Assembly (NCBI RefSeq): GCF_036507355.1
Contig: NZ_AP027877.1
Strand: one strand, 5' to 3'
DNA length: 64,000 bases
Source: Escherichia coli
GTDB lineage: Bacteria > Pseudomonadota > Gammaproteobacteria > Enterobacterales > Enterobacteriaceae
Shown: piece by piece, positions 5,249-30,055 of the stretch
How positions within the stretch are numbered: the stretch's first letter is position 1
Layout: each line of letters opens with the position of its first letter
The notes under the pieces: model-generated
Told to the model about the DNA's origin: nothing
The model's input: only the letters and a program-made list of their open reading frames with translations
Database searches by the model: none
Position numbers and translations under genes: made by a program

Positions 5249-5504
5249 TGGAGCACCTCAAAAACACCATCATACACTAAATCAGTAAGTTGGCAGCATC
5301 ACCCGCATCAGGATGGGAAATAGGGTAAAAAAGTAAGGAACTTCGATACCTCTACTACAGTGAATATTTTGCTGATGATACTTCCCTTTGCCAAATGAAA
5401 TTAACCTCTTTCTCTATTACCGCGTTTTTCCAGAAGCAAGAGATTGGGTATCAAGAGGCTGGCTGCTATGATATGGCGTCTTGTTTTTTAAGCGAGGAAA
5501 GATT

Positions 5505-6260
5505 TTGAGTGCGGGACGCCTGAATAAAAAATCTCTGGGTATCGTGATGTTGTTATCGGTTGGACTGCTTTTGGCGGGCTGTTCGGGTAGCAAATCATCC
5601 GATACAGGAACGTATTCCGGCTCCGTTTACACCGTGAAACGGGGGGATACGCTATATCGTATTTCGCGCACCACGGGAACCAGCGTAAAAGAACTGGCGC
5701 GACTGAACGGCATTTCCCCCCCTTACACTATTGAAGTAGGTCAGAAACTAAAACTGGGTGGGGCGAAAAGTAGCAGTAGTACACGTAAATCAACCGCCAA
5801 ATCAACGACTAAAACCGCATCGGTTACACCGTCATCAGCGGTACCGAAATCTTCCTGGCCGCCAGTAGGGCAACGTTGTTGGTTATGGCCAACGACAGGG
5901 AAAGTTATCATGCCGTATTCGACAGCAGATGGCGGCAATAAAGGGATTGATATCTCAGCTCCACGGGGTACACCTATTTACGCCGCGGGTGCAGGAAAGG
6001 TGGTGTATGTGGGCAACCAGCTGCGTGGCTACGGTAATCTCATCATGATTAAACACAGTGAAGATTACATTACGGCTTACGCCCATAATGACACGATGCT
6101 GGTAAATAATGGGCAAAGCGTGAGGGCTGGGCAAAAAATCGCCACCATGGGGAGCACGGATGCGGCATCTGTTCGCCTGCATTTCCAGATTCGTTACCGT
6201 GCAACGGCAATTGATCCGCTACGTTACTTGCCGCCGCAGGGCAGCAAGCCAAAATGCTGA
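5505..6260 (+). CDS. ygeR: LysM/peptidase M23 lipoprotein YgeR
   Basis: Probable TTG start at 5505 preceded by GAGGA (the track ORF starts at an upstream ATG at 5481); lipobox LLAGC, LysM segment (YTVKRGDTLYRISR) and C-terminal M23 domain; located immediately upstream of glyU. Confidence 0.85.
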   Translation: MSAGRLNKKSLGIVMLLSVGLLLAGCSGSKSSDTGTYSGSVYTVKRGDTLYRISRTTGTSVKELARLNGISPPYTIEVGQKLKLGGAKSSSSTRKSTAKSTTKTASVTPSSAVPKSSWPPVGQRCWLWPTTGKVIMPYSTADGGNKGIDISAPRGTPIYAAGAGKVVYVGNQLRGYGNLIMIKHSEDYITAYAHNDTMLVNNGQSVRAGQKIATMGSTDAASVRLHFQIRYRATAIDPLRYLPPQGSKPKC

Positions 6261-6338: not shown

Positions 6339-6412
6339 GCGGGCGTAGTTCAATGGTAGAACGAGAGCTTCCCAAGCTCTATACGAGGGTTCGATTCCCT
6401 TCGCCCGCTCCA
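6339..6412 (+). tRNA. glyU: tRNA-Gly (anticodon CCC)
   Basis: 74-nt sequence GCGGGCGTAGTTCAATGGTAGAACGAGAGCTTCCCAAGCTCTATACGAGGGTTCGATTCCCTTCGCCCGCTCCA with cloverleaf and CCC anticodon. Confidence 0.97.
6390..6412 (+). repeat. attL core: 3' end of glyU (23 bp), direct repeat of 10585-10607
   Basis: TTCGATTCCCTTCGCCCGCTCCA occurs identically at 6390-6412 and 10585-10607. Confidence 0.85.
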
Positions 6413-6546
6413 TGACCTTTCTTAAAGTACTCCAACCTACTGAATCCTAAGGGATACGGCTTTAAGCCTTCCGCTAGTTTTACTCACTGTAACCAACACT
6501 GTAACTAAATTTGTTGAAATAGTGAGCAGACTTAAGATCTCAGTAC

Positions 6547-8178
6547 ATGCTCAACTCAAAAACCTATCTTTATCAGCGCAATGGCGTCTTTTATATCCGC
6601 CTCAGGATGAAGTCCACAGATCGCCTGACCGTTTCACATCCTTCCCATAGCCGTTATAAAATAGCGTCAGTATCACTACGGACTAAGGATAGACGTACAG
6701 CTATGGCTTACTCACGGCAAATCAAGGCAGCACTTAGGGCAATCCATGCAGACAGACCCAACGCCTCCTATGAGGAAATGAGGGAACACCTGAGGGACAT
6801 CGCAGAGTGGGAGTTGTCTACAGGTCGTTCAGACCTCTTCGAGCCAGATATGAGAGATCTATACCGTGACCAGTATGGGGAAGTGGGAGAGAATCTTGTC
6901 CATGCTCTGGCAAGCGAGCCACTGACTATTGACCAGCATCGCTATATTAATGAGGCTCTTAATGTACTCAAGGCCTGCATGAAGCGCATTGAAGCGGGAG
7001 ATAGCCAGCCACTTATAGATTATATAGATGGATTTGATGCTGCTGCTGGGGCTAATGGCCAAGCCTCTGCAACTCTATCTGTTAGTGCTCCCCAAAAAAC
7101 AAGCATTACTGAAGGCAAACACTGCGTAACCGTTGCTTCTCTCTTTGAGCAGTACGAGCAGGAAAACGCCCAGAACTGGAAGCCAGCAACATTACGAGAA
7201 AACAAAGCTTCTCATGCTGCGTTAATCGAAGTTTTTGATTATCTGGGCCTCAATGCTGACGCCAATGTGTTAGCTCGTGCGGATATGCTTAGGGTTCGGG
7301 ATATCCTCCAGCAATTGCCGAAGAATCGTAAGCAGCGTTTCAAAGATGTTCCGTTGGTTGACCTGCTAGGTCGTGAGGATAAAACCGATTGTCTGGATAT
7401 TGTTACCATCAATAATAAATATCTCATTAAGATGGCGGCTGTTTTCAAGTGGGCCGTGCGTAATGACCTGATTAAAAAGAATATGACAGAAGGGCTAGAG
7501 CTTAAGGTTCCCCAGCGTAAAGCCTCTGAGGCGCGTAATGCTTTCTCTACGGAGCAGGTAGGACAACTACTGGCTGCCGCCCAAGTTTACTCACAGAGAC
7601 CTTCTGGTAAGCCGTATCATTATTATGTTACCGCCTTGGCTGCTATCACTGGGGCGAGACTCAATGAAATAGCCCAACTACAGGTCAAAGACGTCAGGAC
7701 CACTGAGGCGGGAACCGTTTATATTCATATCAATGAAGACGATAGTAGTCTACCCGGTAAGAGCATCAAGAACGCTCATAGTGACCGCTGTGTGCCTCTG
7801 GTCGATGGGGCCTATGGTTTTATATTGGCTGACTTTATGAGGTTGGTTGAGACCCGTAGAGGCGCTGATGGTGATGACGCTATGGTGTTCGATGGTCTTC
7901 GCCTCATGAAGAACGGTTACGGTGAGCAGGTGAGTAAATGGTTTAATCGGACGTTGTTGCCTAAAGTCCTCGCAGACCGTAGCGGCTTAGCGTTTCACTC
8001 GTTTAGACATACAGTTGCGACCCAGTTAAAACAACATGGGGTCGAGTTGGCGTATGCACAGGCGATCATGGGGCATAGTTCAGGGTCTATTACTTACGAC
8101 CGTTATGCTAAAGAGGTTGAGGTTGATAGACTGGTCAATGTGATGGCTGATGTTTATAAGGAGGTTGTGGCCCCTTAA
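6547..8178 (+). CDS. tyrosine-type integrase (543 aa, extended N-terminal region)
   Basis: C-terminal catalytic motifs ARLNEI (Arg), HSFRHTVAT (H-x-x-R), GHSSGSITYDRYAK (Tyr); first gene after the tRNA att core. Confidence 0.85.
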   Translation: MLNSKTYLYQRNGVFYIRLRMKSTDRLTVSHPSHSRYKIASVSLRTKDRRTAMAYSRQIKAALRAIHADRPNASYEEMREHLRDIAEWELSTGRSDLFEPDMRDLYRDQYGEVGENLVHALASEPLTIDQHRYINEALNVLKACMKRIEAGDSQPLIDYIDGFDAAAGANGQASATLSVSAPQKTSITEGKHCVTVASLFEQYEQENAQNWKPATLRENKASHAALIEVFDYLGLNADANVLARADMLRVRDILQQLPKNRKQRFKDVPLVDLLGREDKTDCLDIVTINNKYLIKMAAVFKWAVRNDLIKKNMTEGLELKVPQRKASEARNAFSTEQVGQLLAAAQVYSQRPSGKPYHYYVTALAAITGARLNEIAQLQVKDVRTTEAGTVYIHINEDDSSLPGKSIKNAHSDRCVPLVDGAYGFILADFMRLVETRRGADGDDAMVFDGLRLMKNGYGEQVSKWFNRTLLPKVLADRSGLAFHSFRHTVATQLKQHGVELAYAQAIMGHSSGSITYDRYAKEVEVDRLVNVMADVYKEVVAP

Positions 8179-8179
8179 G

Positions 8180-8234
8180 GATGACCATAGGCGATGACCA
8201 TAGGCGATGACCATAGGCGATGACACTTGCTACT
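8180..8234 (+). repeat. tandem 13-bp iterons (GATGACCATAGGC x3 plus a variant GATGACACTTGCTACT)
   Basis: Three perfect head-to-tail copies starting one base after the integrase stop; the variant unit recurs at about 8391-8410. Confidence 0.8.
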
Positions 8235-8293
8235 ATTCCTATGGTCCCCTTTGTGGTCCTATGTGGTCCTGTGTGACCCTTTGTGTGGTCATG
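8235..8293 (+). repeat. cluster of TGGTCC/TGTGGTC short repeats
   Basis: ATTCCTATGGTCCCCTTTGTGGTCCTATGTGGTCCTGTGTGACCCTTTGTGTGGTCATG: about five degenerate copies of one motif. Confidence 0.7.
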
Positions 8294-8330
8294 TTTTGAC
8301 TCATAGTTTTCACTACTTGTCAAGCATATT

Positions 8331-8353
8331 TAATACGACTCACTATAGGGAGA
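8331..8353 (+). promoter_or_regulatory. bacteriophage T7 RNA polymerase promoter (exact 23-bp class III consensus)
   Basis: TAATACGACTCACTATAGGGAGA read directly, predicted +1 G at 8348; followed by a TCTCTCTCTGTCTCTCTC tract. Confidence 0.85.
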
Positions 8354-8584
8354 AGGGACACAAAAAGTTTTCTCTCTCTGTCTCTCTCTATGATGACACT
8401 TGCTACTACTTCAGGTAGCTTTAACTCTAACCGTAACTTATCGCATCCTTTCAGGGGCGGGATGACCAATTACAGACACCAAGCGTTCTACTTAAAATGA
8501 ATGCTTCCTGTGTGCTCTGGGTCAGTCGATAAGTGAATAGCCTTAGACATCATATTAATTATGGTCTCTAACCCCTACAGGGGC

Positions 8585-8729
8585 TTAACTTTAAGTATTA
8601 ACTTATAGTCTACTTAAAGACACAATTAAAGATTAACTTAAAGTATTAAATTATAGATTAATTAAAGACCAATTAAAGAGTAACTTTAAGTATTAACTTA
8701 TAGTCTACTTAAAGACACAATTAAAGATT
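8585..8729 (+). repeat. AT-rich iteron array with two ~48-bp direct repeats (TTAAAGA/TTAAAGAC units)
   Basis: AACTTTAAGTATTAACTTATAGTCTACTTAAAGACACAATTAAAGATT at about 8587-8634 and 8682-8729; preceded by CCCCTACAGGGG at about 8570. Confidence 0.8.
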
Positions 8730-8920
8730 GACTCTAAGGGAATACCTTAAGAGGTGATGATATTCATAATAATCAATCACCAAACCTATAGGTCTCCTCA
8801 AGGCATTACCCAGAAGCTAACTGTATGGCCCTGTATGGTCCTGTACGCCATTCTTTAGGATGCCATGTAGTTTCGTATGGCCTGATGCCTAGCGTGGCTC
8901 AGAGACCCTCCCAGTAGTAA

Positions 8921-8945
8921 ATCAATACGACTTACTAATAGGAGA
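8921..8945 (+). promoter_or_regulatory. degenerate T7-like promoter (putative)
   Basis: CAATACGACTTACTAATAGGAGACA: 18 of 23 positions match the T7 consensus, same orientation, about 230 bp upstream of the 9158 ORF. Confidence 0.45.
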
Positions 8946-9157
8946 CACACTCCGAACCACTCACCACGTGTCTCTCAAAGTTCCACCTCTCGCGCTTCAC
9001 CATACAGTAGCTCCGCACAGCTACGACACAATCATTCATTCAATCTCAAAGTCATTCTGTTTGCATCCTGTTGTCCTGCTGGTCTCCCTTCGCTTGGGGA
9101 CTTTGAGTGGGCCAGTAGGGGGCGGTTTAGTGTGCATATTTAAAAGGTAACCAAGCA

Positions 9158-9721
9158 ATGAACAATAAACATAAACATGCAGGTCATATTATCACTATTG
9201 AAGGCCACAGCTTTAAGTCTAATGAGTCTGGCATGTGGAATCTTACAGAAATATGGAAAATCCTCGGATTACCTAACAATAAGCTACCCTCTCAGTGGCG
9301 CGGCAAGGTAACAAAGAGGCTCACCGACATGCAAAAAATGCACGTCGAGAAGATTGGTATTGAAAGCATAACCTACGCAGACAAACAGGCTACCCTCAAG
9401 TATGCAGGATGGGTCTCTGAAGATTTCGAGGACATGGTCTATGCAGCCTTTGAGGCTATCCTTGAGATGCCTGAAGTTGCCACGGTCGTTGCTAATAAGA
9501 TGGTCGAACTTGGCTATCACGCTGAAGCTGAGCTATTGGAACGTCATAAGGACGACTATAGAGAAGCTATGCAGACCCTTAAAAAGATTGGTAAACGTGT
9601 TGACGGCAGGAAGCCTGAGCGCATCTACAAGGCCGTACTTAACGGTAATCTGACGAAATTTCAAGGGTTATCCATGATTTCTCGCAGCAGTGTCTGGTAC
9701 GCCCGAACAGTGAATCTATGA
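9158..9721 (+). CDS. hypothetical protein, possible KilA-N-like N-terminal domain
   Basis: 187-aa ORF with AAGGTAA upstream; N-terminal IITIEGHSFKSNESGMWNLTEIWKILG...AGWVSEDFEDMVYAAF is reminiscent of KilA-N/APSES-type domains (tentative, from recall). Confidence 0.5.
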   Translation: MNNKHKHAGHIITIEGHSFKSNESGMWNLTEIWKILGLPNNKLPSQWRGKVTKRLTDMQKMHVEKIGIESITYADKQATLKYAGWVSEDFEDMVYAAFEAILEMPEVATVVANKMVELGYHAEAELLERHKDDYREAMQTLKKIGKRVDGRKPERIYKAVLNGNLTKFQGLSMISRSSVWYARTVNL

Positions 9722-9844
9722 TGGCTATCGATCACGATAGATGCCAGCGATCAATTTCAGGTTACCGATCGAAACAAACGATCAGCACGATGGTTGCAAT
9801 CGGATATCATATTGACACTTGTCTGACATCCTGAAGGTATCAAT

Positions 9845-10318
9845 ATGTTTGGGCTTTTTAAGAAAAAGGCAAAAGCGGAAAGGTGTTATGATGTAACACG
9901 CATTCAATACGAGCTGGTTGTAATGTCATCTAAGCTGATAAAAAAACAGACCGATATGTTCAAAGTAATAAAAGGGGAGCGAGAGGAGGCTTTAGGAGAC
10001 CCTTTATTATCAGCAGGGTATATAACGCCATGGGTCATTGGATATTGCACTGGTCTCCTGGATGCAGTGACTCAGACGGAGGCTAACAGGATGGCATTTA
10101 CATCAGAAATGCTTGGGCTTCTTTTTGCTGCAGTTTTCGGTGATGATAAGTCTCTTGAGGCCATGGGAACTTATATAGCCTGTAACGAAGCCTCCTCACC
10201 AGACCATGGATTTCATGTTACGTATGAGCTTTATATGTCTGGTCTAGCGAAAGCGTTTAATGAGGTATGTGAGGATAAACCTGCGATAGGACTTCTGAAC
10301 TATTTAATGCAGGATTGA
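9845..10318 (+). CDS. hypothetical protein (157 aa)
   Basis: ORF with no recognisable motifs; TTGACA at about 9810 upstream; last ORF before attR. Confidence 0.45.
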   Translation: MFGLFKKKAKAERCYDVTRIQYELVVMSSKLIKKQTDMFKVIKGEREEALGDPLLSAGYITPWVIGYCTGLLDAVTQTEANRMAFTSEMLGLLFAAVFGDDKSLEAMGTYIACNEASSPDHGFHVTYELYMSGLAKAFNEVCEDKPAIGLLNYLMQD

Positions 10319-10584
10319 AAATTTCCCACAAAAATCTCAGTGCCTATCTAACAGTAATAACCCTGCAACATTCCCCCGTATACCTCCAGAAGTTATCCAG
10401 AAGCCGAAGTAGGTATCCTGTCATGTATTTGAATCATCAAAGTTGTTCGTTCTATTCCTCTTTAGGGAATATTACAGCCCTACAGCCTTGACCAGAGATC
10501 ACTTGATGTGTAACCATAACTGTAACCAAAAGGATTCATCATCCTTTAAGAAACAATTGGTTAGTGAGTGATTGTCTTCGATAC

Positions 10585-10607
10585 TTCGATTCCCTTCGCC
10601 CGCTCCA
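10585..10607 (+). repeat. attR of the 4.2-kb element (also proximal att of the next islet)
   Basis: 23-bp copy of the glyU 3' end; flanking sequence diverges from the tRNA. Confidence 0.85.
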
Positions 10608-10771: not shown

Positions 10772-11998
10772 ATGAAGCTGACTGCTCGTCAGGTTGAAAC
10801 TGCGAAACCCAAAGAGAAGCCCTACAAACTGGCCGATGGTGGTGGGCTTTACCTGCTGGTTAATCCCAACGGTAAAAGATACTGGCGTCTCAAATACCGT
10901 TCGTTAGGTAAAGAGAAGCTGCTCGCTATTGGCGTTTATCCCGATGTTTCTTTAGCTGAGGCCCGAAGTAAGCGTGAGGATGCTAAAAGAACATTAGCGG
11001 CTGGCAACGATCCCTCTCTTGAACGAAAAATTGAGAAACTTAGTCGTCAACAAGACGCTGAAAACTCGTTTGAGGCTATCACACGGGAGTGGTATCAGCG
11101 TCGCTATGACCGCTGGTCTGTCTCCTACCGCGAAGAAATGCTGAGAACCTTTGAGAAAGATGTATTTCCTTATATCGGTCACAGGCCAATCAAAGATATC
11201 AAGCCGATGGAGTTGCTTGCAGTTCTTTCAAAGATAGAAGCACGAGGGGCAACAGAGAAAGTCCGCAAGGTTCGTCAGCGTTGTGGAGAGGTCTGGAAGT
11301 ATGCCGTTGTGACTGGGAGGGCCGAGTACAATCCAGCACCTGATCTAGCCAGCGCCGTGAGTCCTCATGAGAAAGAGCACTATGCTTTTTTAACCCAGGA
11401 TGAATTGCCTGAGTTTCTTCGGACTCTGAACGCCTATGCCGGTAGTGTGCTTGTTAAGATTGCGATGCAATTGCTCATTTTAACAGGAGTAAGGCCAGGG
11501 GAGTTGAGGCAAGCGGAGTGGCAGGAGTTTGATTTTGAGAAAAAGGTTTGGAATGTACCAGCGGAACGTATGAAAATGCGCCGCCCTCATCTTGTTCCAT
11601 TATCAAGCCAGGCAATTGACCTGCTTAATCAACTTAAACCCATAACGGGAGCAGGAGCGTTATTATTCCCAGGACGTAATAATCCTAAGAAACCGATGAG
11701 CGATATGGCATTGACTGTGTTGGTCAGGCGTATCGGCTATGCCGGGCGCGTTACAGGGCATGGATTCCGCCACACGATGAGTACCATTTTGCATGAGCAG
11801 GGATTCAACTCGGCCTGGATTGAGTTACAGCTGGCTCACGTCGATAAGAACTCAATTCGTGGGACGTATAACCATGCTCAATATTTGGAAGGTCGGCGGG
11901 AGATGATGCAGTGGTATGGAGATTTCATCGGTCAAGCAGGCAAATCCGGATCATCGCTAGCTTATGCAGCTATTAGCTTGACTGCTGAATTAGAGTGA
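10772..11998 (+). CDS. P4-type tyrosine integrase
   Basis: 408-aa ORF; N-terminus MKLTARQVETAKPKEKPYKLADGGGLYLLVNPNGKRYWRLKY typical of P4-family integrases; HGFRHT and Y-containing C-terminal box; sits 165 bp after the tRNA-derived repeat. Confidence 0.9.
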   Translation: MKLTARQVETAKPKEKPYKLADGGGLYLLVNPNGKRYWRLKYRSLGKEKLLAIGVYPDVSLAEARSKREDAKRTLAAGNDPSLERKIEKLSRQQDAENSFEAITREWYQRRYDRWSVSYREEMLRTFEKDVFPYIGHRPIKDIKPMELLAVLSKIEARGATEKVRKVRQRCGEVWKYAVVTGRAEYNPAPDLASAVSPHEKEHYAFLTQDELPEFLRTLNAYAGSVLVKIAMQLLILTGVRPGELRQAEWQEFDFEKKVWNVPAERMKMRRPHLVPLSSQAIDLLNQLKPITGAGALLFPGRNNPKKPMSDMALTVLVRRIGYAGRVTGHGFRHTMSTILHEQGFNSAWIELQLAHVDKNSIRGTYNHAQYLEGRREMMQWYGDFIGQAGKSGSSLAYAAISLTAELE

Positions 11999-12008
11999 GA
12001 AGGGGCAA

Positions 12009-12056
12009 GTTGAGCCTCTTCGCTGAGAAGAGGCTCAACGTGAACCTATTTTTTTG
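12009..12056 (+). terminator. intrinsic terminator after integrase
   Basis: GTTGAGCCTCTTC-GCTG-AGAAGAGGCTCAAC hairpin followed by a T7 run. Confidence 0.7.
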
Positions 12057-12153
12057 GGAGTTAATACTTTTTGCAATTTTTTTTTTCGTGCCGTTGGATG
12101 TAAAGATCTGTGGGGGTTAGGGAAGAAAATCATGCTATGTTAGTCTTTGAGGA

Positions 12154-13131
12154 GTGAGTCAAAATGTTATAACTTTTTCAAAGAGGCGTTACATCGTGAA
12201 AGTCGTTTTTAATGTTAATGGTAAAAAAGTTCCGCTCAAATCTCTGCAATATATAAGTAAAGCAAATCAACTCGAAGTTATGCGGAATTGGTTTTTTGAG
12301 AATTTTGAAGATCCCGCGAACTCTTGCCCGTATGAATCCCGTGAAGGCGGGTATGCTTACATTTATGGGGGCCCATACGAAGCAAGTGAAGAGTTGCAAG
12401 CGATGTTTGAAGGACACGTGAAATTTGATTATATCCAAGAATTAGTCAATGAATTACAAGAACAGTGCTATGAATGGTCTGGTAATTCAAATAATATTAA
12501 TGATTGGTACGATGAAGACTTGTATGATGCTGTTACATCTTCTGAACATCCTTTTTCTAAGTTCGTTGAAAGCATTGATGGAATAAAATTGCTGTCTAAA
12601 GGCGAATTTAAAGATAAACAAAAAGATCATCTGCTTAGCATCCTATATATTAATGTCATTACAGCCCTGGAAACACTTTATGTTGAGTTATTTATTAACT
12701 CTATAGATAAAAACGACTCATATCTTGCTGACTTTATAGAAAAAGGTAAGACGGAATTTAAGGTAAATAAAGGAATATTGGCTTTGCCATTCAAAGGAGA
12801 AACTATTGAAAACATGAGGGCGCAATTAATTAAGGTAATTAAAGAGCATTTGATTAGTGCAAGTTGGCATAGTACAAACAAAGTTGTAGGACGTTATAAA
12901 GCTACATTTGATATAAAAGTACATAAAGAGTGGCCAATAGATGTGATCGAAATAGCAACTCAAAAGCGTAATCATTTAGTCCATCGTGGCGGGAAAGATA
13001 AAGAAGGTAATTCGGTAGTGATTACTGAACAGGATTTAGAAATGTTGCTGGATCACGCACAATCTCTTGGAGAAAAATTGTTTGATAGCCTTGAGGTGGC
13101 ATTACAGAAAAAAGATGAGAATGAATTTTGA
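12154..13131 (+). CDS. hypothetical protein with C-terminal HEPN-like R-x4-H motif (putative abortive-infection protein)
   Basis: 325-aa ORF; C-terminal KRNHLVHRGG fits the HEPN R-x(4-6)-H signature; AT-rich gene inside an integrase islet. Confidence 0.5.
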   Translation: MSQNVITFSKRRYIVKVVFNVNGKKVPLKSLQYISKANQLEVMRNWFFENFEDPANSCPYESREGGYAYIYGGPYEASEELQAMFEGHVKFDYIQELVNELQEQCYEWSGNSNNINDWYDEDLYDAVTSSEHPFSKFVESIDGIKLLSKGEFKDKQKDHLLSILYINVITALETLYVELFINSIDKNDSYLADFIEKGKTEFKVNKGILALPFKGETIENMRAQLIKVIKEHLISASWHSTNKVVGRYKATFDIKVHKEWPIDVIEIATQKRNHLVHRGGKDKEGNSVVITEQDLEMLLDHAQSLGEKLFDSLEVALQKKDENEF

Positions 13132-13182
13132 GTCTCGGGGTAGGTTGATAGTGCTACCGATAACGAGCAAGCAAATGATACT

Positions 13183-13202
13183 CGGCAGGCAGTGCCTGCC
13201 GG
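13183..13202. terminator. bidirectional hairpin between convergent genes
   Basis: CCGGCAGGCA-G-TGCCTGCCGG perfect inverted repeat between the 13131 and 13207 stop codons. Confidence 0.55.
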
Positions 13203-13206
13203 AGGA

Positions 13207-14910
13207 TTACTTTTTACTTCCAAATTGAATGCCGAGAAGTTTATTCTCTGCTTTATCGCCACGTAGAGTAAGAACAATTTTTGATTTCAGTTCTAACATT
13301 TCGATTTCAGATAAAGTTGTTTCCATAGCATTAAAGTTTTCAGTGTTTAAAGATGCTATATATTGCTTTCCGCTTCGTTTTAATGACTGATTGACAAATG
13401 AGAACCATCTTGCGCGAACACCTGGATCTATATCAGCAAAAAGACGGTTATCATGCCATAGCATATCCATGGCATGGTTTTCACCACATGTAAATACTAA
13501 CCAGTCAAAGCATAATATCCTAGCATCATTGATCCCATCCGAATCATCACCCTCGATTTGGATGCTTAGATCATAACGAATTTTGTTGTCACCAGTATTA
13601 ACATCCAAAACTATTCCTGCTGGTACCCTTGGGTACATTATTTCTGCGAGCTCAGCAAAAATTTTATCGTATTCTGAAAGAGGATTTGTAGAAGCATAGT
13701 TTACCGCTAATCTGTCTTGTTCAACTTTTCGTTCTCTTAGATTTTGAGCTTTCTGTTGAAGGTTAATAGAAAAATTTAAATAATCATGTAACCTTTCTTT
13801 TTCTTCTTTAAATTCAGCTAGTTGTCTAGCTATGACTGCGTATTCATCAAATGCTTTCTTGCCTTGCAGGGATTCCAAATATGAATCACGTAATGCTGAA
13901 ATATCCTTAATGTCAATTTTAAGAGATTCAATTTCTAACAAAAGTTTTACTTTATCATTTTCAAGTCTTTTCTTTCTGTTAAAAGATAATGATTTGTGAA
14001 AATTTTCAACTGACTCAAAATGGGCCAATGTTTCTGGCTTGAAAATCTCTTGTAAGCCATTGTACAGTTCAAGAAGCTCTTCTCTTGAAATGTCAGGGTG
14101 TTCTAATAAAGTTTTTTCTATATTATTTACTTTAAATTCAGCTATATTTTTGTTTTTTTCAACTTCTCGTAATTTTATAGTTAAACTGTTTGTTTCATTC
14201 TCAATAGCTCTGTATTGCTCGTGAACTTGAAATGCATTCAGTTCATCCTGCAGTCTTGGGATCTCTCTTTCTAGCCACTCATAGCGTACTTTAGGTTGAG
14301 AGCCTGCTCTAAACATGTCTTTTAGAATATCATCGTCTTGCCAATTTTTTAGCGATTGACTTACTTTATCCAGCTCTTGCTTATTATTTCTTTTAGATAA
14401 TATTAAATTATGATCTATACCGAGAAGAAATGCGGTACGAAGCAATGCTTCAAAGTCTTGCTCCTTTTTTGTCCTAGTTGGACTGATGCAGTCATCTCTG
14501 GTATATCGCGAAAAACGCTTAAATAAAGATCTGAATGATAAATACGGAATGTTATTCTCAAGATTAAATATTCCTATTTTATCTAATAAATCTTTAAATG
14601 CTTTTAAAGATATTGTTTTGTCATTTAATAATAATTTTTTTCCATTGCCCGTTCTAGATATTAAGTACTCAACTCCATTATGAGAAAAAAGTAAAGAGAA
14701 CCACCAATCTGGAACTGCTGAAGTTAATTTTTTATCAGCATTAGCTCCTAAACAATGTTGAATGAGACCGAGAATAAGTGTCTTACCGACTCCGTTACTA
14801 CTGCCTTCTTTTTCTTTAGAGCTATCACCAATGATCAACGTTAGTCCTGTATCATTGAAATGCACTGGATGAAAAGTTGGCTGATCGCAAGTTAAGCGAA
14901 TTAACTTCAT
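13207..14910 (-). CDS. SMC/ABC-type P-loop ATPase with long coiled-coil region (putative anti-phage ATPase)
   Basis: 567-aa ORF; Walker A GSSNGVGKT near the N-terminus; long K/E-rich heptad-like middle; start codon abuts the stop of the upstream 101-aa gene. Confidence 0.65.
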   Translation of the reverse strand: MKLIRLTCDQPTFHPVHFNDTGLTLIIGDSSKEKEGSSNGVGKTLILGLIQHCLGANADKKLTSAVPDWWFSLLFSHNGVEYLISRTGNGKKLLLNDKTISLKAFKDLLDKIGIFNLENNIPYLSFRSLFKRFSRYTRDDCISPTRTKKEQDFEALLRTAFLLGIDHNLILSKRNNKQELDKVSQSLKNWQDDDILKDMFRAGSQPKVRYEWLEREIPRLQDELNAFQVHEQYRAIENETNSLTIKLREVEKNKNIAEFKVNNIEKTLLEHPDISREELLELYNGLQEIFKPETLAHFESVENFHKSLSFNRKKRLENDKVKLLLEIESLKIDIKDISALRDSYLESLQGKKAFDEYAVIARQLAEFKEEKERLHDYLNFSINLQQKAQNLRERKVEQDRLAVNYASTNPLSEYDKIFAELAEIMYPRVPAGIVLDVNTGDNKIRYDLSIQIEGDDSDGINDARILCFDWLVFTCGENHAMDMLWHDNRLFADIDPGVRARWFSFVNQSLKRSGKQYIASLNTENFNAMETTLSEIEMLELKSKIVLTLRGDKAENKLLGIQFGSKK

Positions 14911-23812: not shown

Positions 23813-24790
23813 TCACTCTAATGCTTTTTGAGCAGCAAGTTCAAGTTCACTTTTTCCATGAAGTGCCAAAGACATATGGCATTCCGCTAGAAGGCAATAA
23901 CATTCTGTTTTTAGCGTCTGTATATCACTTTTATTTTGTAATCCATCAAATATAGTCATGGCCCTGTAAATGCTTTCAGGGGTGAACTCGTAAAGTTCTT
24001 TCTTTCCGGCTAACATTTCATCTGATAAATAATGATTCTTATATCCTTGGTCCTGCTTAGCTAATCTTACAGATCGTTCTGGTTTATGTACCGTTTGAAG
24101 GATATTATCTATAATAAATTGTGATGTATTATGTAGTTCATCAACAGGGAGATGATTACTGGCGATGAGGAAAAGGTTTTTAGCGTCGATCAACTCAATG
24201 TATAAAGTGTTCACTGCATTATTCTGGTTTATTCTTCCTGTAACGAAATAATCTGGCTTGAATCTGCTCAAGAATGAATTTTGAGATATGTGGTCATTAC
24301 AAAAATTTGTCGCAGCCATCGGATAGGTATAGAGACCATCGATTTTTTTATTTGAAATGATTTGTACTAATTCCTGATTAAGTATTAATGGATCCAGTGT
24401 ATTCAATGAAGTGGTGAAAGGGAATATAGCTATGGAATAGTCTGAAGTATTATCTTCATTAATTTTAGTTTTGAAAACCTGCCCGCTGAAACGATAACCT
24501 TTCCGGTAGATTGTTTCTATGCAGCGATCATAGCCAATTTTTTCAAAAATGCAGCGCAAAGAATAGATACATCTTGTCAGGGACTCGTCACTAACAATAA
24601 TATTTTTCCATACTGATTCGATGATCATATCTTTCAGTACAACATGACCAGCGGATTCAAGTAATACTATTAATACACCTAACTCTTTCGGTGGAATATA
24701 AACTTGCTCATTTCCTTGAGTAAGAATTCCATCTTCCGTGAGCGTTAATCCCTCAAGAAAATGATATGAGAATTTATTTTCTAAGTCCAT
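23813..24790 (-). pseudogene. ygeH: ygeH-like HilA/ToxR-type regulator (ETT2), 3'-truncated by the IS3-family element
   Basis: 325 aa with N-terminal winged-helix region; the reading frame stops on the TGA that is the first triplet of the IS terminus; K-12 YgeH is about 458 aa (recall). Confidence 0.65.
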
Positions 24791-25123
24791 TAGTTAACCT
24801 CTATGAAAAAATTGGTTTCTTGCATCCTGCATAAGCAATAGAAATTATGGCTATTCATATTTATATGTCATTAACGCTACAGGAGTTTACATTCGACATA
24901 TCTATGGTTGTGTTCACTAATTTATCTTAGGAATTCAGTGATGTAATCTGAAATAGCCTTATTCAATTTTGATAAAGTAAAATGCTCTCTAAAGCATTGA
25001 AAAATAATGATTTATTGTATGCTCTTAACTGTTTTAAGATGCTGATTTAAGAAAAGATAAGAGGTGCTGGTTATAGTGGTTAATGCACTATAACCAGCAA
25101 TTTTAACCAAATGATTGTAATGC

Positions 25124-25615
25124 TTAGTTATTATCTTCTGAATTATCGGTTAAGAGTTCGACATATGCCTGCGCTTTACTCTTAACACTATCATCCTCAC
25201 AATTGTTAATAATATGAAAGAAACATTGCATTGCGTTATCGATATTTTTAGCCCCAATTTGACATTGACCCATACGATAAATAACTGAATAGTCATCATA
25301 TGGCGAGTAATTATAACTTAGCTTGTAAAGGTCATATGCTTGTTGATATTTCTTTTTTGACTGACATACTGATGCAAAACCTTTTAGATATTCATGATTT
25401 TCGAACGCATAAATGCACAATAATTTATAATAAATTTCTGCCTCCGTTATATTACCCTTTTCATGGTAGTCGAATGCATATGCATATATTCTATCAAGGA
25501 TATCAGGAGTCAAACCATGTAGTAATGCCAGATTTTCTCCTTTCGATAATGCGTGTTTTAGTTGATTTGCCCATTCATCACTATTATTGAATATTTCAAT
25601 TGTTTCTGTGTCCAT
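25124..25615 (-). CDS. ygeG: TPR-containing type III secretion chaperone-like protein YgeG
   Basis: 163-aa acidic TPR protein, SicA/class II chaperone-like; ETT2 position. Confidence 0.7.
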   Translation of the reverse strand: MDTETIEIFNNSDEWANQLKHALSKGENLALLHGLTPDILDRIYAYAFDYHEKGNITEAEIYYKLLCIYAFENHEYLKGFASVCQSKKKYQQAYDLYKLSYNYSPYDDYSVIYRMGQCQIGAKNIDNAMQCFFHIINNCEDDSVKSKAQAYVELLTDNSEDNN

Positions 25616-25861
25616 AATATTCCTCTGTGATGTGTCTCGTGATGCTAAATTATTATTGATTGACTCATTAATATTTCTACATTTATCTTTTTTAAATTAT
25701 GAGTTTTAAGCTTGCATTGCTTATGAGTATATTTCTTCATTATTAGTAAAATTACTGTCCACTACAAACTAATTACATTATTAGTTATTTTGATAATATT
25801 CACCTTATTAGTAATCTTAATTACGACATTCCATAAATGCCTTAATGTGCATGACCATGAT

Positions 25862-26266
25862 TCATATTATCAATTTCCATTTTTCGATCAAAATTAAAAA
25901 GGGGATTTTTGCGAAGGGGCGAATGTCGTTTGTTTTTTTTTCTTTATTATGTCTGGTGATGAGGGGGGATAGAACGTCGGTGCATATAGTAGAGAATTTA
26001 TCCAGGTCTAAATTATTCTCTATTTTGGTCAGTTTTATGAGTTCATTTGTAGCCATACTCATTAAATCATCTGTTATCGGAAATTTATATATGCTCATAG
26101 CAGATAATATTGCTTGCTGAATTATTTCTTCAGAAAAATCCGCTATCTTTATTGACAAATCATGTATTTGATATTTTCCTCCAAGAGATTCTTGTTCAAT
26201 ATAATTTAAACCAGACCTCATAGTAATTTTAACTGGATTAACGAATTTTTCTTCATTTTTCTTCAT
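25862..26266 (-). CDS. ETT2-associated hypothetical protein (ygeF-like)
   Basis: 134-aa AT-rich ORF in the ygeF position relative to ygeG; no motif support. Confidence 0.35.
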   Translation of the reverse strand: MKKNEEKFVNPVKITMRSGLNYIEQESLGGKYQIHDLSIKIADFSEEIIQQAILSAMSIYKFPITDDLMSMATNELIKLTKIENNLDLDKFSTICTDVLSPLITRHNKEKKTNDIRPFAKIPFLILIEKWKLII

Positions 26267-26759
26267 TTTTCTTATTTTTGTTCTCCTGATCAGGAACTAA
26301 TGGTTGCAGTGGTAGGCTATTATTAATATTTCGTGGCTTCATTTTACATTTCTCTCATTTGATTAGAGCAAAATCCGAACTCGCAGCTTCTGATAATGTC
26401 AAATATCACCTTTTCTCATACTTTATTCTATCAAAAATCGCTCATTTTTACTTTTTTTACCATAATGTTACTTTGTAGCATCGGCAATTTACATAACTTA
26501 CACGTTGTTTTTTATATCCTGAAAAAACAGATAGATAGTGTGCGCACTCGAAATGATATTGGTAACATAAATAGCTTTATTCGTGATAAACATCTCAAAA
26601 GATTTCCTTTATTATATTCGAAATTCATTTGATCAAGGTTATCACCTTATGGAGACGTTACGTAGAATGACTATATTTGTTATCGGCACATTAGGGGTAT
26701 TAATTTTAGTATTGATGGAAGGTGATTATTGAACAGTAACATCGAGTCACGGTAAAAAT

Positions 26760-27197
26760 GTGAGGTATATAATGGATATTGAGTTTTCGCAGATTCATGA
26801 AATGGTCTATATGCATGATATTGTAAATTCGGACTCGAAAAAGAAACCAAGGATTCCGTTAAAAAAATTCCTTAATGCTGAGAAGGTTCTCACGCAAACA
26901 ACATCATGGGCATTAAATTCAAGATATGTGAATGTTAATTCTGTTAATAATGCCAACGTAAAGAGTAAAGTTAAAAACAGTTATATCTCACGATCTGTCA
27001 ATGATGAGTTTAGTTTAACAGATGATGAAATCAATTCTTTTAAAGAAACGTTAGTCCTTTCCTCTATTGATTCACTGAGTAAACTGGTTCTTAATAATCC
27101 TCTTTCTGTATTGTTTACTTCGACTGTACGAAGGAATAATAATCGAGCTAAGATGAATGTAGAGTTCGACTCATGGATTTGCACCAGATGTTGTTGA
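26760..27197 (+). CDS. yqeK: hypothetical protein YqeK-like
   Basis: 145-aa ORF; size, orientation and position match K-12 yqeK. Confidence 0.45.
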
Positions 27198-27345
27198 TAC
27201 ATGATATTTTACATTGCAAGGGGATGTCTGAAATGAAAGATGTTGATCAAAACTTTGATGCTTTAGACTGCCATATACTGCAAGCATATTTAATTTTATT
27301 GTTTTATGATTAACGAGGTTCCATCTTTTTGTTATCTATTTTAGT

Positions 27346-27840
27346 TTACCTTGCACAATGCATTATTGCTCTGTTACCAATACTCAAAATAAAAGCATGC
27401 TTACCTTGCTTTAGTATATTATAGCTTACACTTTTTTCTGGAAAGACATAAAAATCAGGAATAAGTTCTGCAAGTCTATCATCATCGACTTGATCCATAA
27501 TCTCAAACTTATTAACTTTCTTTGATGTTAAATGGGCTGTGTCATAGTTTTCAACCCATGTGTATTCAATATTTCGCCGTATTGATTTACTTTCTCTGTT
27601 ACCTTGTTGCCAGGTTCCACTCAACGCAACAGTTCCTGTTTTATTTTTTTGGTTATACATAAAGTCGATAGTAAGATTTGCTCGCCCCTGGTCATTAAAA
27701 ATTACCCAATTTGCAGTGCATGTCTCATTATATATCATTTTTTCTGCAGTGTAAGAATAGACAGTGAAGAGAATAAACCCACTGATAAAAACTAAAATAA
27801 ATAATAAGTTTTTTTTATAATCAATCACGATTAACCTCAC
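27346..27840 (-). CDS. yqeJ: hypothetical membrane-anchored protein YqeJ
   Basis: 164-aa ORF with N-terminal TM helix; overlaps the end of yqeI, suggesting an operon. Confidence 0.55.
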   Translation of the reverse strand: MRLIVIDYKKNLLFILVFISGFILFTVYSYTAEKMIYNETCTANWVIFNDQGRANLTIDFMYNQKNKTGTVALSGTWQQGNRESKSIRRNIEYTWVENYDTAHLTSKKVNKFEIMDQVDDDRLAELIPDFYVFPEKSVSYNILKQGKHAFILSIGNRAIMHCAR

Positions 27841-28630
27841 GGTAAGACAGGGTTAAACAGCCTGCCACTTCATGTTGGTTATAGTTTTTATTGCATGCCA
27901 TAACAATCATCCCCGGTGAGGATTTTGCAAGAGGGAAGTATAACCACGGATATTTTTTACAGTTAATCCCCGAATCCAATATCCGTGTTTTATATTTATC
28001 GAACTCTTTCAACCCATCAATTGTATCTTCTGTTACATTAAAATGGCAGCCATTAATTTCCGCAACAATCTTGTAATCCTTGAAAAATGGCTTCGGTTGA
28101 TTATTATTCCATAGCCAATATGCAAAATATGCGCCTATGACAAATGCGCTCAACATAATTAGATGACTTTTTATATGTTTGAGGATTTTGTTATTGAAAT
28201 TCTTTGCGCCACCAATGCTCTCTTTGTATCCCGCATTAACTTTTATGGCCGGTGGGGTATTGTGTGTATGTGCGTCTGTTGACGAGTTTATTACATGATT
28301 TTGTATGTTAATGTCATTATGGATCTTGAATCCTCTTCTCGGCACGGTTGCAATAAGTGAGTGGGTAGTATCACCAACAGCGCGAAATCCGCGTCTGATA
28401 ATGGATATGTTCTGATATAACGTGTTAGTTGGCACACGCATACCTTCTTCTTCCCAGACTCTGGTGAAAAAATCTTGTTGTGCAACCACATCAGGAAAAG
28501 CTTCAAGTAGAAGGGATAAACAACGACTGGCTGGCGTTGTCAGAACGACGTTAAGATCGGCGTTATGTACCGATATTAATTTTCGGTGCTCAGGCCAGAA
28601 CTCGATATTATCGTTAATAATCCAGTACAT
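27821..28630 (-). CDS. yqeI: ToxR-like winged-helix transcriptional regulator YqeI
   Basis: 269 aa; N-terminal OmpR/ToxR-type DNA-binding region followed by a TM segment (LIMLSAFVIGAYFAYWLW). Confidence 0.65.
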   Translation of the reverse strand: MYWIINDNIEFWPEHRKLISVHNADLNVVLTTPASRCLSLLLEAFPDVVAQQDFFTRVWEEEGMRVPTNTLYQNISIIRRGFRAVGDTTHSLIATVPRRGFKIHNDINIQNHVINSSTDAHTHNTPPAIKVNAGYKESIGGAKNFNNKILKHIKSHLIMLSAFVIGAYFAYWLWNNNQPKPFFKDYKIVAEINGCHFNVTEDTIDGLKEFDKYKTRILDSGINCKKYPWLYFPLAKSSPGMIVMACNKNYNQHEVAGCLTLSYREVNRD

Positions 28631-28963
28631 ACGTCAATAAACACTAAATCAATCGAAATGGAAATCACATAGTTTGCTAAGTATATTGGTATTTACGGCA
28701 TAAATATATATTAATTTTATATTTATCATGATGATTGAAATGAGGCTTTAATGGCGCAACGTAAAACTTTATATAAATTAACATGGTTAACATTTATGCC
28801 ACTATTGTTGATAAATTCATATTTCGTAATGCTTCTGAATTTTTCGTGTGATGGTTTTAAATACTATGTTGTTTACTCTTGGGGTTACTGCTTATTTATA
28901 AAATACGGGCATTCCAATAGATGCCCGTATAAGCAGAGTATGATTCTGGCAGATCGTTGAGTA

Positions 28964-29656
28964 TTAATGTTGGACCGAATGTGAACGAATAAATAACTCG
29001 TTTATTTTACCACCCATTCTCTTTTCGATTCGTTGCTTGTACGCGTAGATGCTACGGATATCCATATCCAGAACTTCAGTAATCTGATATGGGTTATAAC
29101 CAGAAACCATATACCCCATTATGGTGAATTCCATCTGAGTTAATGTGTTACCTCTGGTAAATGATAAATAACGACCAATAAATAGTTGTCTGATCTTTTC
29201 ATTGGCAACATCAAGACCATCATCATTATATATGACAGCAGATATTGCAGAGTTGTGCTTTCGCCAGTAGTTAGCTAACGATTGCATATTGCGGTCGCTG
29301 ACTAAAACAATCCCCATGTCAGTACTTGCAAGATAGTCAATCCAGTCTTTTTCAAGGAATAGACGTAAAAAACTTACTGAAAAATCGACAAAAATATATC
29401 CGCTTAATCTCGCATTGTGGTTTTTTGTTAAGATACCTTCCACCACACCACGATTAAAATATGAACTTTCTTCGGGCCACATACAAAAACACGAGTTTGC
29501 GCAATACTGAAAACGCGGTGACTCTTCTGGCATTATTTGGCAATGCATTGAGCAACTATTGCATGTAAGACTTTTATAACGACTACAAAGCCCCATGTTA
29601 AGAACCTCCCTATCCGTATATAATTGCATAATTTCATTGGTTATTGATGATGTCAA
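28964..29656 (-). CDS. yqeH: LuxR-family (GerE-type HTH) regulator YqeH
   Basis: 230 aa with C-terminal HTH (LTQMEFTIMGYMVSGYNPYQITEVLDMDIRSIYAYKQRI). Confidence 0.6.
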   Translation of the reverse strand: MTSSITNEIMQLYTDREVLNMGLCSRYKSLTCNSCSMHCQIMPEESPRFQYCANSCFCMWPEESSYFNRGVVEGILTKNHNARLSGYIFVDFSVSFLRLFLEKDWIDYLASTDMGIVLVSDRNMQSLANYWRKHNSAISAVIYNDDGLDVANEKIRQLFIGRYLSFTRGNTLTQMEFTIMGYMVSGYNPYQITEVLDMDIRSIYAYKQRIEKRMGGKINELFIRSHSVQH

Positions 29657-30055
29657 TACACCATGATTTTGTAATGTTGCTGGGAAAAATTGCGATTAAT
29701 CTGTATTTGCTATAATTCTGATTAAGACATTTAAAAATGCATTTCTCGTTATTAAATATGATTATGTTTCACTGATTTAATCTTGCATGGTTGAGAGTGG
29801 TCCAGATAACTATCTCATGGTATGAGAATATCTATATCGCAAATTGTTTTTGAATGACCAGAAGATATCTTGCGAATCTAAGTTATGCATCTTAAATAGT
29901 CTTATTTAAGATGTTCAGATCTCTTTGTGTGTTTAACTAACTGATAATTCTAGGATATGATGAGAGAAGTGATAGGGCGGAATAATAACAAATGAACATT
30001 ATGAAAAATGGAATGGTTCAAAATTGTAGTAATTTTGAACCATTCACAATGGATA

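Follow-up and report, generated by a model that had tools for sequence, protein, structure and literature searches.

A 64,000-nucleotide stretch of an Escherichia coli chromosome (assembly GCF_036507355.1, contig NZ_AP027877.1; hereafter the window) contains a 4.2-kb integrated element in which two open reading frames (ORFs) lie behind T7-type phage promoters: ORF1, for a divergent KilA-N-type protein of 187 amino acids, and ORF2, for a protein of 157 amino acids. Judged from their sequence context, ORF1 and ORF2 constitute an operon of two genes, and the RNA polymerase of a T7-type phage alone is in a position to transcribe it. The function proposed here, to which we give slightly less than an even chance, is that ORF1 is made upon infection and would direct the excision or activation of the element. 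The features of the element are listed in Table 1.

The element and its promoters

The element lies in the E. coli chromosome after actS/ygeR (5481-6260), at the gene for tRNA-Gly(CCC). The 23-bp repeat of the end of the tRNA gene on both sides delimits the 4.2-kb insert, and in strain SBF22, which does not have the neighbouring island described below, core chromosomal genes directly follow the same insert. From left to right, the order is integrase, tandem repeats, exact T7 promoter, AT-rich repeats, degenerate promoter, leader, ORF1, ORF2, arm-type repeats and attR; the TGTAACC...CTGTAAC repeats are probably integrase arm-type sites on both arms of attP (6413-6546 and 10319-10584). With an integrase and att sites of its own, and two other genes that have no structural-protein match in Pfam or PHROGs, the element has the gene content expected of a phage satellite. 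In other strains it is broken by insertions of IS1, IS3, IS66 and IS100. Nothing resembling the element DNA was found in phage genomes at the sensitivity of blastn.

The first promoter, whose transcript would be expected to start at G8348, matches the T7 consensus exactly and, with its flanking T included, is identical to T7 phiOR at 24 of 24 positions; the perfect promoter (23/23) is found in several divergent E. coli variants of the element. The second promoter has 82% identity to the first and matches the phiOR flank at 18 of 20 positions. Neither an intrinsic terminator nor a sigma-70 promoter was predicted near ORF1 and ORF2, which makes dependence on a phage RNA polymerase plausible. Both ORFs are present exactly as the original prediction described them, and it was right to call them the only substantial ones after the T7-type promoters, there being no other ORF of at least 100 amino acids between the promoters and attR.

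ORF1, a predicted DNA-binding protein of the KilA-N type

The resemblance of the N-terminus of ORF1 to KilA-N domains, noticed in the original prediction, is weak for the single sequence (19.4 bits) but solid for the family, of which 25 of 53 members match PF04383 at E≤0.01 (best 1e-6). Some relatives and E. coli alleles have a precomputed PF04383 match or the RefSeq name 'KilA-N domain-containing protein', and the best profile match of ORF1 itself is phrog_129, 'transcriptional regulator' (7.8e-10). An alignment-based AlphaFold2 model of ORF1, with a predicted local distance difference test score (pLDDT) of 82.5, and of 88-94 over residues 11-90, has the topology beta-beta-alpha-alpha-beta-beta-alpha-alpha followed by long helices; a Foldseek search matched viral KilA-N proteins, as expected of an alpha+beta N-terminal fold of the KilA-N/APSES type. 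On the strength of the family-level PF04383 matches, phrog_129, the model and a basic isoelectric point (pI 9.3), ORF1 is accepted as a divergent KilA-N protein, predicted to bind DNA, with a helical C-terminal part, an assignment that sequence and model support for the family more firmly than for the single protein.

The 94 relatives of ORF1 found at E≤1e-3 belong to Serratia, Pectobacterium, Kluyvera, Pantoea, Erwinia, Proteus, Citrobacter, Enterobacter, Rouxiella, Yersinia and Pseudomonas. Their alignment shows conservation between about residues 8 and 130 and variability thereafter; because conservation of the N-terminus begins at about residue 8, position 9158 is taken as the true start. 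The full 564-nucleotide ORF1 is annotated in other RefSeq genomes, and the RefSeq model of 131 amino acids in SBF22 (L001 5868-6427) is due to a frameshift of ORF1 in that strain. The ratio of nonsynonymous to synonymous substitution rates (dN/dS) relative to orthologues is 0.09-0.19 for ORF1 and ORF2 alike; by this measure both are genuine genes under purifying selection.

Among 50,697 phage genomes, relatives of ORF1 were found only in four Vibrio phage records, at about 30% identity, and the nearest phage matches are annotated 'anti-repressor Ant'; no relative was found on 72,556 plasmids, and both ORF1 and ORF2 are absent from sequenced T7-like phages. No match of ORF1 to an excisionase or AlpA-type family was found in Pfam or NCBIfam, and neither ORF1 nor ORF2 contains an AlpA or primase domain. 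A PADLOC match of ORF1 to PD-T4-2_B (E=1.3e-4) was set aside as incidental, because ORF1 lacks the DUF262 and HEPN domains by which the PD-T4-2 system is recognised (PMC10952713).

A conserved leader upstream of ORF1

The leader of about 100 nucleotides that precedes ORF1 is conserved from E. coli to Pseudomonas. In an alignment of 15 sequences, 94% of the pair cells are paired, compared to 26-67% in slid controls, and compensatory changes affect 8 pairs, compared to 4.0 in shuffles. Two of the pairs are G-U in all or nearly all sequences, which indicates an RNA structure on the sense strand. A covariance model (R1) scores 98 bits at the leader in the window, 80-110 bits at every ORF1 locus, and 62-63 bits in front of an unrelated gene that occupies the slot of ORF1 in E. 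coli GF31 (L038 3810-3928) and in one metagenome contig. The product of that gene, a protein of 163 amino acids with faint pRha/Ant similarity, is probably another DNA-binding protein. Rfam has no family for the leader; by analogy with T7 mRNAs, it might be guessed to be a processing or stabilising site of the RNase III type.

A family of elements with host-matched promoters

Loci encoding ORF1 relatives (designated by L numbers) were fetched for comparison, and 12 were compared for gene content. Their common frame consists of an integrase, a non-coding kilobase, the ORF1 homologue and variable genes: ORF1, by which the loci were chosen, is in 12/12, and an orthologous integrase is in 9/12; in the other three, the upstream sequence is too short or holds an unrelated gene. 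Sister elements with the same frame of integrase, promoter and leader were found in Pectobacterium, Citrobacter, Leclercia, Yersinia and Pseudomonas, and every ORF1 locus has phage-type promoters and the same structured leader ahead of ORF1. The promoters in the non-coding kilobase are of the kind used by single-subunit polymerases, and their type differs by host genus: T7-type in E. coli, ATTAACGACTCACTA(T/C)(A/T)AGAAGA in Pectobacterium (two full copies and a divergent third that shares the 5′ half), ...CCCTCACTATAGGGA in Citrobacter and Leclercia, and TTAAAAACCCTCAC... in Pseudomonas. The promoter sequence of the Pectobacterium element is also found in the T7-like Pectobacterium phage DU_PP_II (40,142 bp), where it adjoins capsid genes, with matching IMG/VR contigs (L039 and L040); this shared promoter links the promoters of the elements to phages of the same host genus.

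The original prediction had regarded both ORFs as cargo, a description that suits ORF2, which is optional and restricted to some lineages, but not ORF1, which is a core gene of nearly every family member from E. coli to Pseudomonas. Because ORF1 is so widely kept behind host-matched phage promoters, it is better described as a signature gene; in two E. coli strains (NT1N31, L026, and O103:H2 12009, L037) it is the sole gene after the promoters. As far as the compared sequences indicate, ORF1 and the integrase are the signature genes of an element family that extends across Enterobacterales and Pseudomonas. Of 5426 complete E. coli genomes, 84 (about 1.5%) have DNA of the ORF1-ORF2 operon, 44 of them with both genes, and copies of the element are counted in 35-84 of the 5426. 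Strains AW1.7, F8704-2 and MB10 are among those with the operon, at 99.9-100% identity.

In 10 of the 12 related loci, the KilA-N gene is followed by two conserved genes designated cl3 (about 150 amino acids, with a weak DUF6971 match) and cl1 (about 330 amino acids); they are found at L002 7292-8986, L004 7112-8606 and L008 4289-5844 and in L009, L010, L012-L016 and L032, and matches to the cl1 protein apparently occur in some E. coli and Shigella too. These may be capsid or scaffold-type proteins, and one member of cl1 has an Ig-like domain of a sort characteristic of structural proteins of virions. The candidate homology of cl1 to capsid or scaffold proteins was rejected: apart from that one Ig-like domain there is no match to a PDB or PHROG family, and hhalign detected none to T7 gp10A or gp9. 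All 44 of 44 cl1 relatives are annotated 'hypothetical'. The relatives have a second cargo slot, located after the integrase and before the phage promoters, which is occupied by DUF4145 proteins, a HEPN-like protein or a protein of 201 amino acids without assignment (L008 1684-2343, L021 4035-4676, L037 3755-4384, L038 2670-3311, L004 4800-5330, L025 2380-2985); being upstream of the phage promoters, these genes are presumably not transcribed from them.

ORF2, a lineage-restricted accessory gene

ORF2 has no match in Pfam, PHROGs, NCBIfam, PADLOC, PDB sequences, the 50,697 phage genomes or the 72,556 plasmids, which bears out the earlier statement that it is without recognisable features; clear homology of both ORF1 and ORF2 to housekeeping proteins or ordinary prophage regulators was likewise not found in these searches. 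An exhaustive hidden Markov model search of 1.84 billion representatives yielded 15 clusters, all unannotated and on short contigs. The 25 relatives of ORF2, in E. coli, Pectobacterium peruviense, Yersinia enterocolitica and Morganella, share an MFGLFKKK N-terminus and a YITPWVIGY...LDA..QT core. No membrane segment is predicted, and the protein is probably an accessory, soluble, acidic helical effector that binds another protein. A candidate relationship of ORF2 to the DUF6971-like cl3, which has a similar position in sister elements, was rejected at an hhalign probability of 0.1%.

The distribution of ORF2 is that of a movable part. It is absent from L026 and L037, it is 74% identical in Yersinia (L021) where ORF1 is 96% identical, and it stands behind a non-homologous first gene in L038 (GF31) and L023; by this pattern ORF2 is optional, modular, lineage-restricted cargo. 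The alleles of the window (9845-10318) and of LR-71-1 (L027 4147-4620) differ by eight nonsynonymous and no synonymous substitutions, a difference that is not significant and may hint at diversifying selection. The spacer between ORF1 and ORF2 (9730-9790) has four GATC (Dam) sites in a stretch of about 55 bp, among CGATC-like repeats.

Sequences resembling a T7 replication origin

Pentamers recognised by T7 primase ([GT]GGTC and GTGTC) number about 26 per kb in 8000-9000, compared to 4.1 per kb in the window, an enrichment of about sixfold. Just upstream of the exact T7 promoter, three copies of GATGACCATAGGC, with primase sites on the minus strand, face TGGTCC repeats with sites on the plus strand; within 8000-9000, the pentamer density stands out at 8180-8282 and at 8821-8844. 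The three AT-rich direct repeats downstream of the exact promoter are rich in CTTAAAGAC and ACTTTAAGT and resemble the repeats of TAAAG type that adjoin the terminal repeat of T7, but they share only short motif matches with T7. In T7, AT-rich DNA next to a promoter constitutes an origin, and small circles with such sequences are converted to concatemers and packaged by T7. The array of primase sites beside the promoter looks like a replication origin made to suit the replisome of T7, and given the enrichment of these pentamers beside the promoter and the AT-rich repeats that follow it, the element would seemingly not need an initiator of its own.

T7 is said to transduce plasmids that carry a T7 origin and a concatemer junction, a finding attributed to Chung and Hinkle in 1990. 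Those plasmids were laboratory constructs, whereas the element shares with the T7 ends, beyond its promoter, only motifs of 8-15 nucleotides (for example, those of the T7 left-end repeats), and no ATCTGTT pause site is present between its promoters and attR.

Proposed function and alternatives

The original prediction named effectors against the helper phage or the host, or factors that redirect replication or packaging, as candidate roles of the two ORFs, and these may still apply. The favoured mechanism begins with infection by a T7-like phage, which would supply the RNA polymerase. If the polymerase comes from the infection, ORF1, and ORF2 where present, would be made only in infected cells. 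ORF1 would then bind DNA and serve as the infection-triggered switch of the element, directing or activating excision by the integrase, a role that AlpA has in satellites of the PICMI and P4 types. Once excised, the element, with its promoter, AT-rich repeats and dense primase sites, could be copied by the phage replisome and mobilised, and ORF2, an accessory effector carried behind ORF1 in some lineages, would act on a phage or host protein. The excision step, which we hold with a confidence just short of even, draws on the fact that ORF1 travels with the integrase in nearly every family member and can be the sole gene after the promoters, on the refilling of its slot by another probable DNA-binding protein, on the apparent lack of need for an initiator and on the precedent of PICMI, in which a small DNA-binding core protein serves excision. 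In its fullest form the proposal is that ORF1 and ORF2 are the whole phage-polymerase-driven programme of a 4.2-kb satellite, maybe the smallest yet seen, from an undescribed family in Enterobacterales and Pseudomonas that parasitises strictly virulent T7-like phages by means of their promoters, an origin-like region and primase sites, ORF1 being a new excision or activation factor and ORF2 a new anti-helper or anti-competitor effector; this fuller version is decidedly less probable and is offered as a speculation.

The closest parallel is with PICMI, the phage-inducible chromosomal minimalist islands of Vibrionaceae, which are satellites of virulent phages with the core genes int, alpA and prim, AlpA being required for excision (PMC10803314). 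Like PICMI (about 6 kb), the element is a very small integrase island tied to a virulent phage, here by promoter sequence; capsid-remodelling and terminase genes are missing from both, and both have a small DNA-binding core gene by int and defence-type cargo in accessory slots. In contrast, PICMI integrate next to fis and encode AlpA and a primase, whereas the element occupies tRNA-Gly(CCC), has a KilA-N core protein and no primase, and thus falls outside PICMI as delimited by the fis-adjacent site and the genes int, alpA and prim. Helper-polymerase promoters are not reported for PICMI in the part of the source available (PMC10803314), whereas direct wiring to a phage RNA polymerase is proposed here. 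Excision and packaging of PICMI are documented (PMC10803314), whereas the element is known from sequence.

Several observations weigh against the proposed mechanism. Most known recombination directionality factors are small proteins of the winged-helix class rather than KilA-N proteins. No binding site for ORF1 was identified, and the match of ORF1 itself to PF04383 (E=9.5e-4, model positions 10-104 of 107) is below the threshold, its 19.4 bits comparing to a cut-off of 23.8. The attP junction expected of an excised circle (...CTTCGATAC/TTCGATTCCCTTCGCCCGCTCCA/TGACCTTT...) had zero matches in JGI metagenome contigs and IMG/VR, which is weak evidence of absence; the metagenomic contigs inspected, including those of element-like size, were all integrated copies, and no close homologue of ORF1 was found in the viral contigs searched. 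The AlphaFold2 model of ORF2 (pLDDT 47.5) is too poor for a fold search. The absence of cl3 and cl1 from the element in the window is a further difficulty, since without them the E. coli element may be a reduced or partly defective derivative. Moreover, BstA, the best-studied bacterial KilA-N(-like) protein, is an abortive-infection effector rather than an excision factor (PMC8585504).

ORF1 might be a BstA-type effector of interference or abortive infection that is made only once the phage polymerase is present, binds replicating phage DNA by its KilA-N domain and blocks replication, with ORF2 as a second effector or modulator. The element might then spare its own DNA by means of a cis element near the gene start, and would be primarily either a defence island or a satellite with an anti-helper weapon. 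BstA moves to phage replication sites and has a cis immunity element, aba, a 63-bp DNA site at its own start codon (PMC8585504). ORF1 likewise has a KilA-N(-like) domain at its N-terminus, is carried on a mobile element and is preceded, immediately 5′ of its start, by a nucleic-acid element that is strongly conserved; a phage-polymerase promoter would be an ideal trigger for a toxic gene, related elements hold genes of defence type (DUF4145, HEPN-like, toxin-antitoxin pairs), and the weak PADLOC match to PD-T4-2_B might be counted in favour as well. However, no BstA model matches ORF1 in PADLOC at E≤1, and ORF1, with 187 amino acids compared to 307, has no second BstA domain and so does not share the two-domain homology (about 300 amino acids) of that family. 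BstA is encoded by prophages, with no phage-polymerase promoter reported in the available part of its description (PMC8585504). The conserved element of ORF1 looks like a folded RNA leader, its G-U pairs indicating sense-strand RNA and not a DNA site such as aba, and it is kept before the non-homologous replacement gene, which would be unexpected for a cognate pair of protein and DNA immunity site. The features resembling a T7 origin, namely arrays of primase sites and AT-rich repeats, would be needless in a pure defence island. On balance a BstA-type role is less likely than the excision role, of which it is the main rival.

Two other explanations are improbable to different degrees. ORF1 could be a transcription factor that acts on the helper genome, like CapR of PLE or Ant/Rha, and tunes late genes or packaging to the benefit of the element, while ORF2 redirects a terminase, lysozyme, RNA polymerase or capsid protein. 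The match to phrog_129 and the anti-repressor Ant annotations of the nearest phage relatives point this way, as does the faintly Ant/pRha-like replacement protein of GF31. KilA-N, Bro-N, Rha and ANT reportedly constitute a network of phage regulatory proteins, recognised by Iyer, Koonin and Aravind in 2002, and ORF1 resembles its members in a predicted beta-beta-alpha-alpha-beta-beta-alpha N-terminal module with a variable C-terminal part and in the refilling of its slot, in GF31, by what is faintly another module of the network; it differs in that the ORF1 subfamily is short and confined to one kind of chromosomal element. That these modules form a single shuffling network of phage regulators is also documented (PMC10111431). 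Set against a regulator of the helper are the lack, among the 50,697 phage genomes, of any T7-like phage whose own relative of ORF1 would suggest a common operator, and the lack of a repeated operator-like motif in common with T7 beyond the promoter and short TAAAG motifs. Such regulators are also not known from T7-type transcription, and we consider the idea improbable. Even less credible is that the region is the decayed remnant of a temperate T7-like prophage or of a larger satellite, and that the ORFs are leftover early genes that no longer take part in phage interactions. Temperate T7-like phages do exist (PMC10134795), and decay might account for the missing cl3 and cl1, the insertion sequences and the frameshifted ORF1 of some strains, but neither att site has decayed, many genera have elements of the same compact architecture, purifying selection acts on both ORFs, the promoter is perfect in several divergent E. 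coli variants, the element has no phage hallmark gene, and sequenced T7-like phages have neither ORF.

Features of the element and of its neighbourhood

Table 1. Positions in the window of the features of the 4.2-kb element and its integration site
Feature	Position	Strand	Evidence
tRNA-Gly(CCC) gene (glyU)	6339-6412	+	ARAGORN; Rfam tRNA, 71.6 bits
attL, the 3′ 23 nucleotides of the tRNA-Gly(CCC) gene	6390-6412	+	23-bp direct repeat with 10585-10607
Tyrosine integrase, 543 amino acids, upstream of the promoters and co-oriented with them	6547-8178	+	PF00589, E=2.2e-18; phrog_1 integrase, 2.6e-42
Short tandem repeats: 3 x GATGACCATAGGC, then 10-bp TGGTCC repeats	8180-8282		Repeat search
Exact T7 consensus promoter TAATACGACTCACTATAGGGAGA, facing ORF1 and ORF2	8331-8353	+	0 mismatches, 23/23
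Three AT-rich direct repeats of 48 bp each, containing CTTAAAGAC motifs	8586-8738		Repeat search
Degenerate second T7-like promoter, about 220 nucleotides upstream of ORF1	8923-8945	+	5 mismatches to T7 consensus
Structured leader, an irregular hairpin of three helices that ends just before the ribosome-binding site of ORF1	9048-9150	+	Covariation, covariance model
ORF1, 187 amino acids, ATG start, putative divergent KilA-N domain (about residues 10-103) and helical C-terminal part	9158-9721	+	
ORF2, 157 amino acids, ATG start, acidic (pI 5.1), predicted all-helical	9845-10318	+	
TGTAACC...CTGTAAC repeat (second copy at 6488-6509)	10509-10530	+	Repeat search
attR, 23-bp copy of the tRNA 3′ end, right edge of the element	10585-10607	+	Repeat search

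A second island is present in tandem at attR (10772-14910). It encodes an integrase of the P4 type (10772-11998) and a HEPN/RES-NTD1-like protein (12154-13131); its minus strand codes for a protein of 567 amino acids (13207-14910) that matches the PADLOC candidate PDC-M68B (E=1e-72). Farther along the window, a block of about 6 kb (24000-30000) has a G+C content of 0.30-0.36, compared to a genome average of about 0.51, and is probably another horizontally acquired region.

Significance

Proteins of the KilA-N type are already known, and so are small satellites of virulent phages and defence proteins with KilA-N domains. What appears to be new is a KilA-N gene, with or without the gene for the 157-amino-acid protein, wired to T7-type promoters in a 4-kb island integrated at a tRNA gene; no description of such an arrangement, of islands bearing T7 promoters or of T7 satellites was found in the full-text literature searched, which does not include most subscription journals.

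T7 and its relatives are textbook virulent phages with wide use in biotechnology and phage therapy. The operon, present in about 1.5% of complete E. coli genomes, could affect T7-based typing and therapy and the hosts of T7 expression systems. If ORF1 is a switch that answers infection by a T7-type phage, then an integrase and one DNA-binding protein would amount to a nearly minimal phage-dependent mobile element, and KilA-N, a very common but poorly understood viral domain, would gain a concrete, testable role. ORF2 and the variable genes of the sister elements would then yield new factors that act on T7-like phages.

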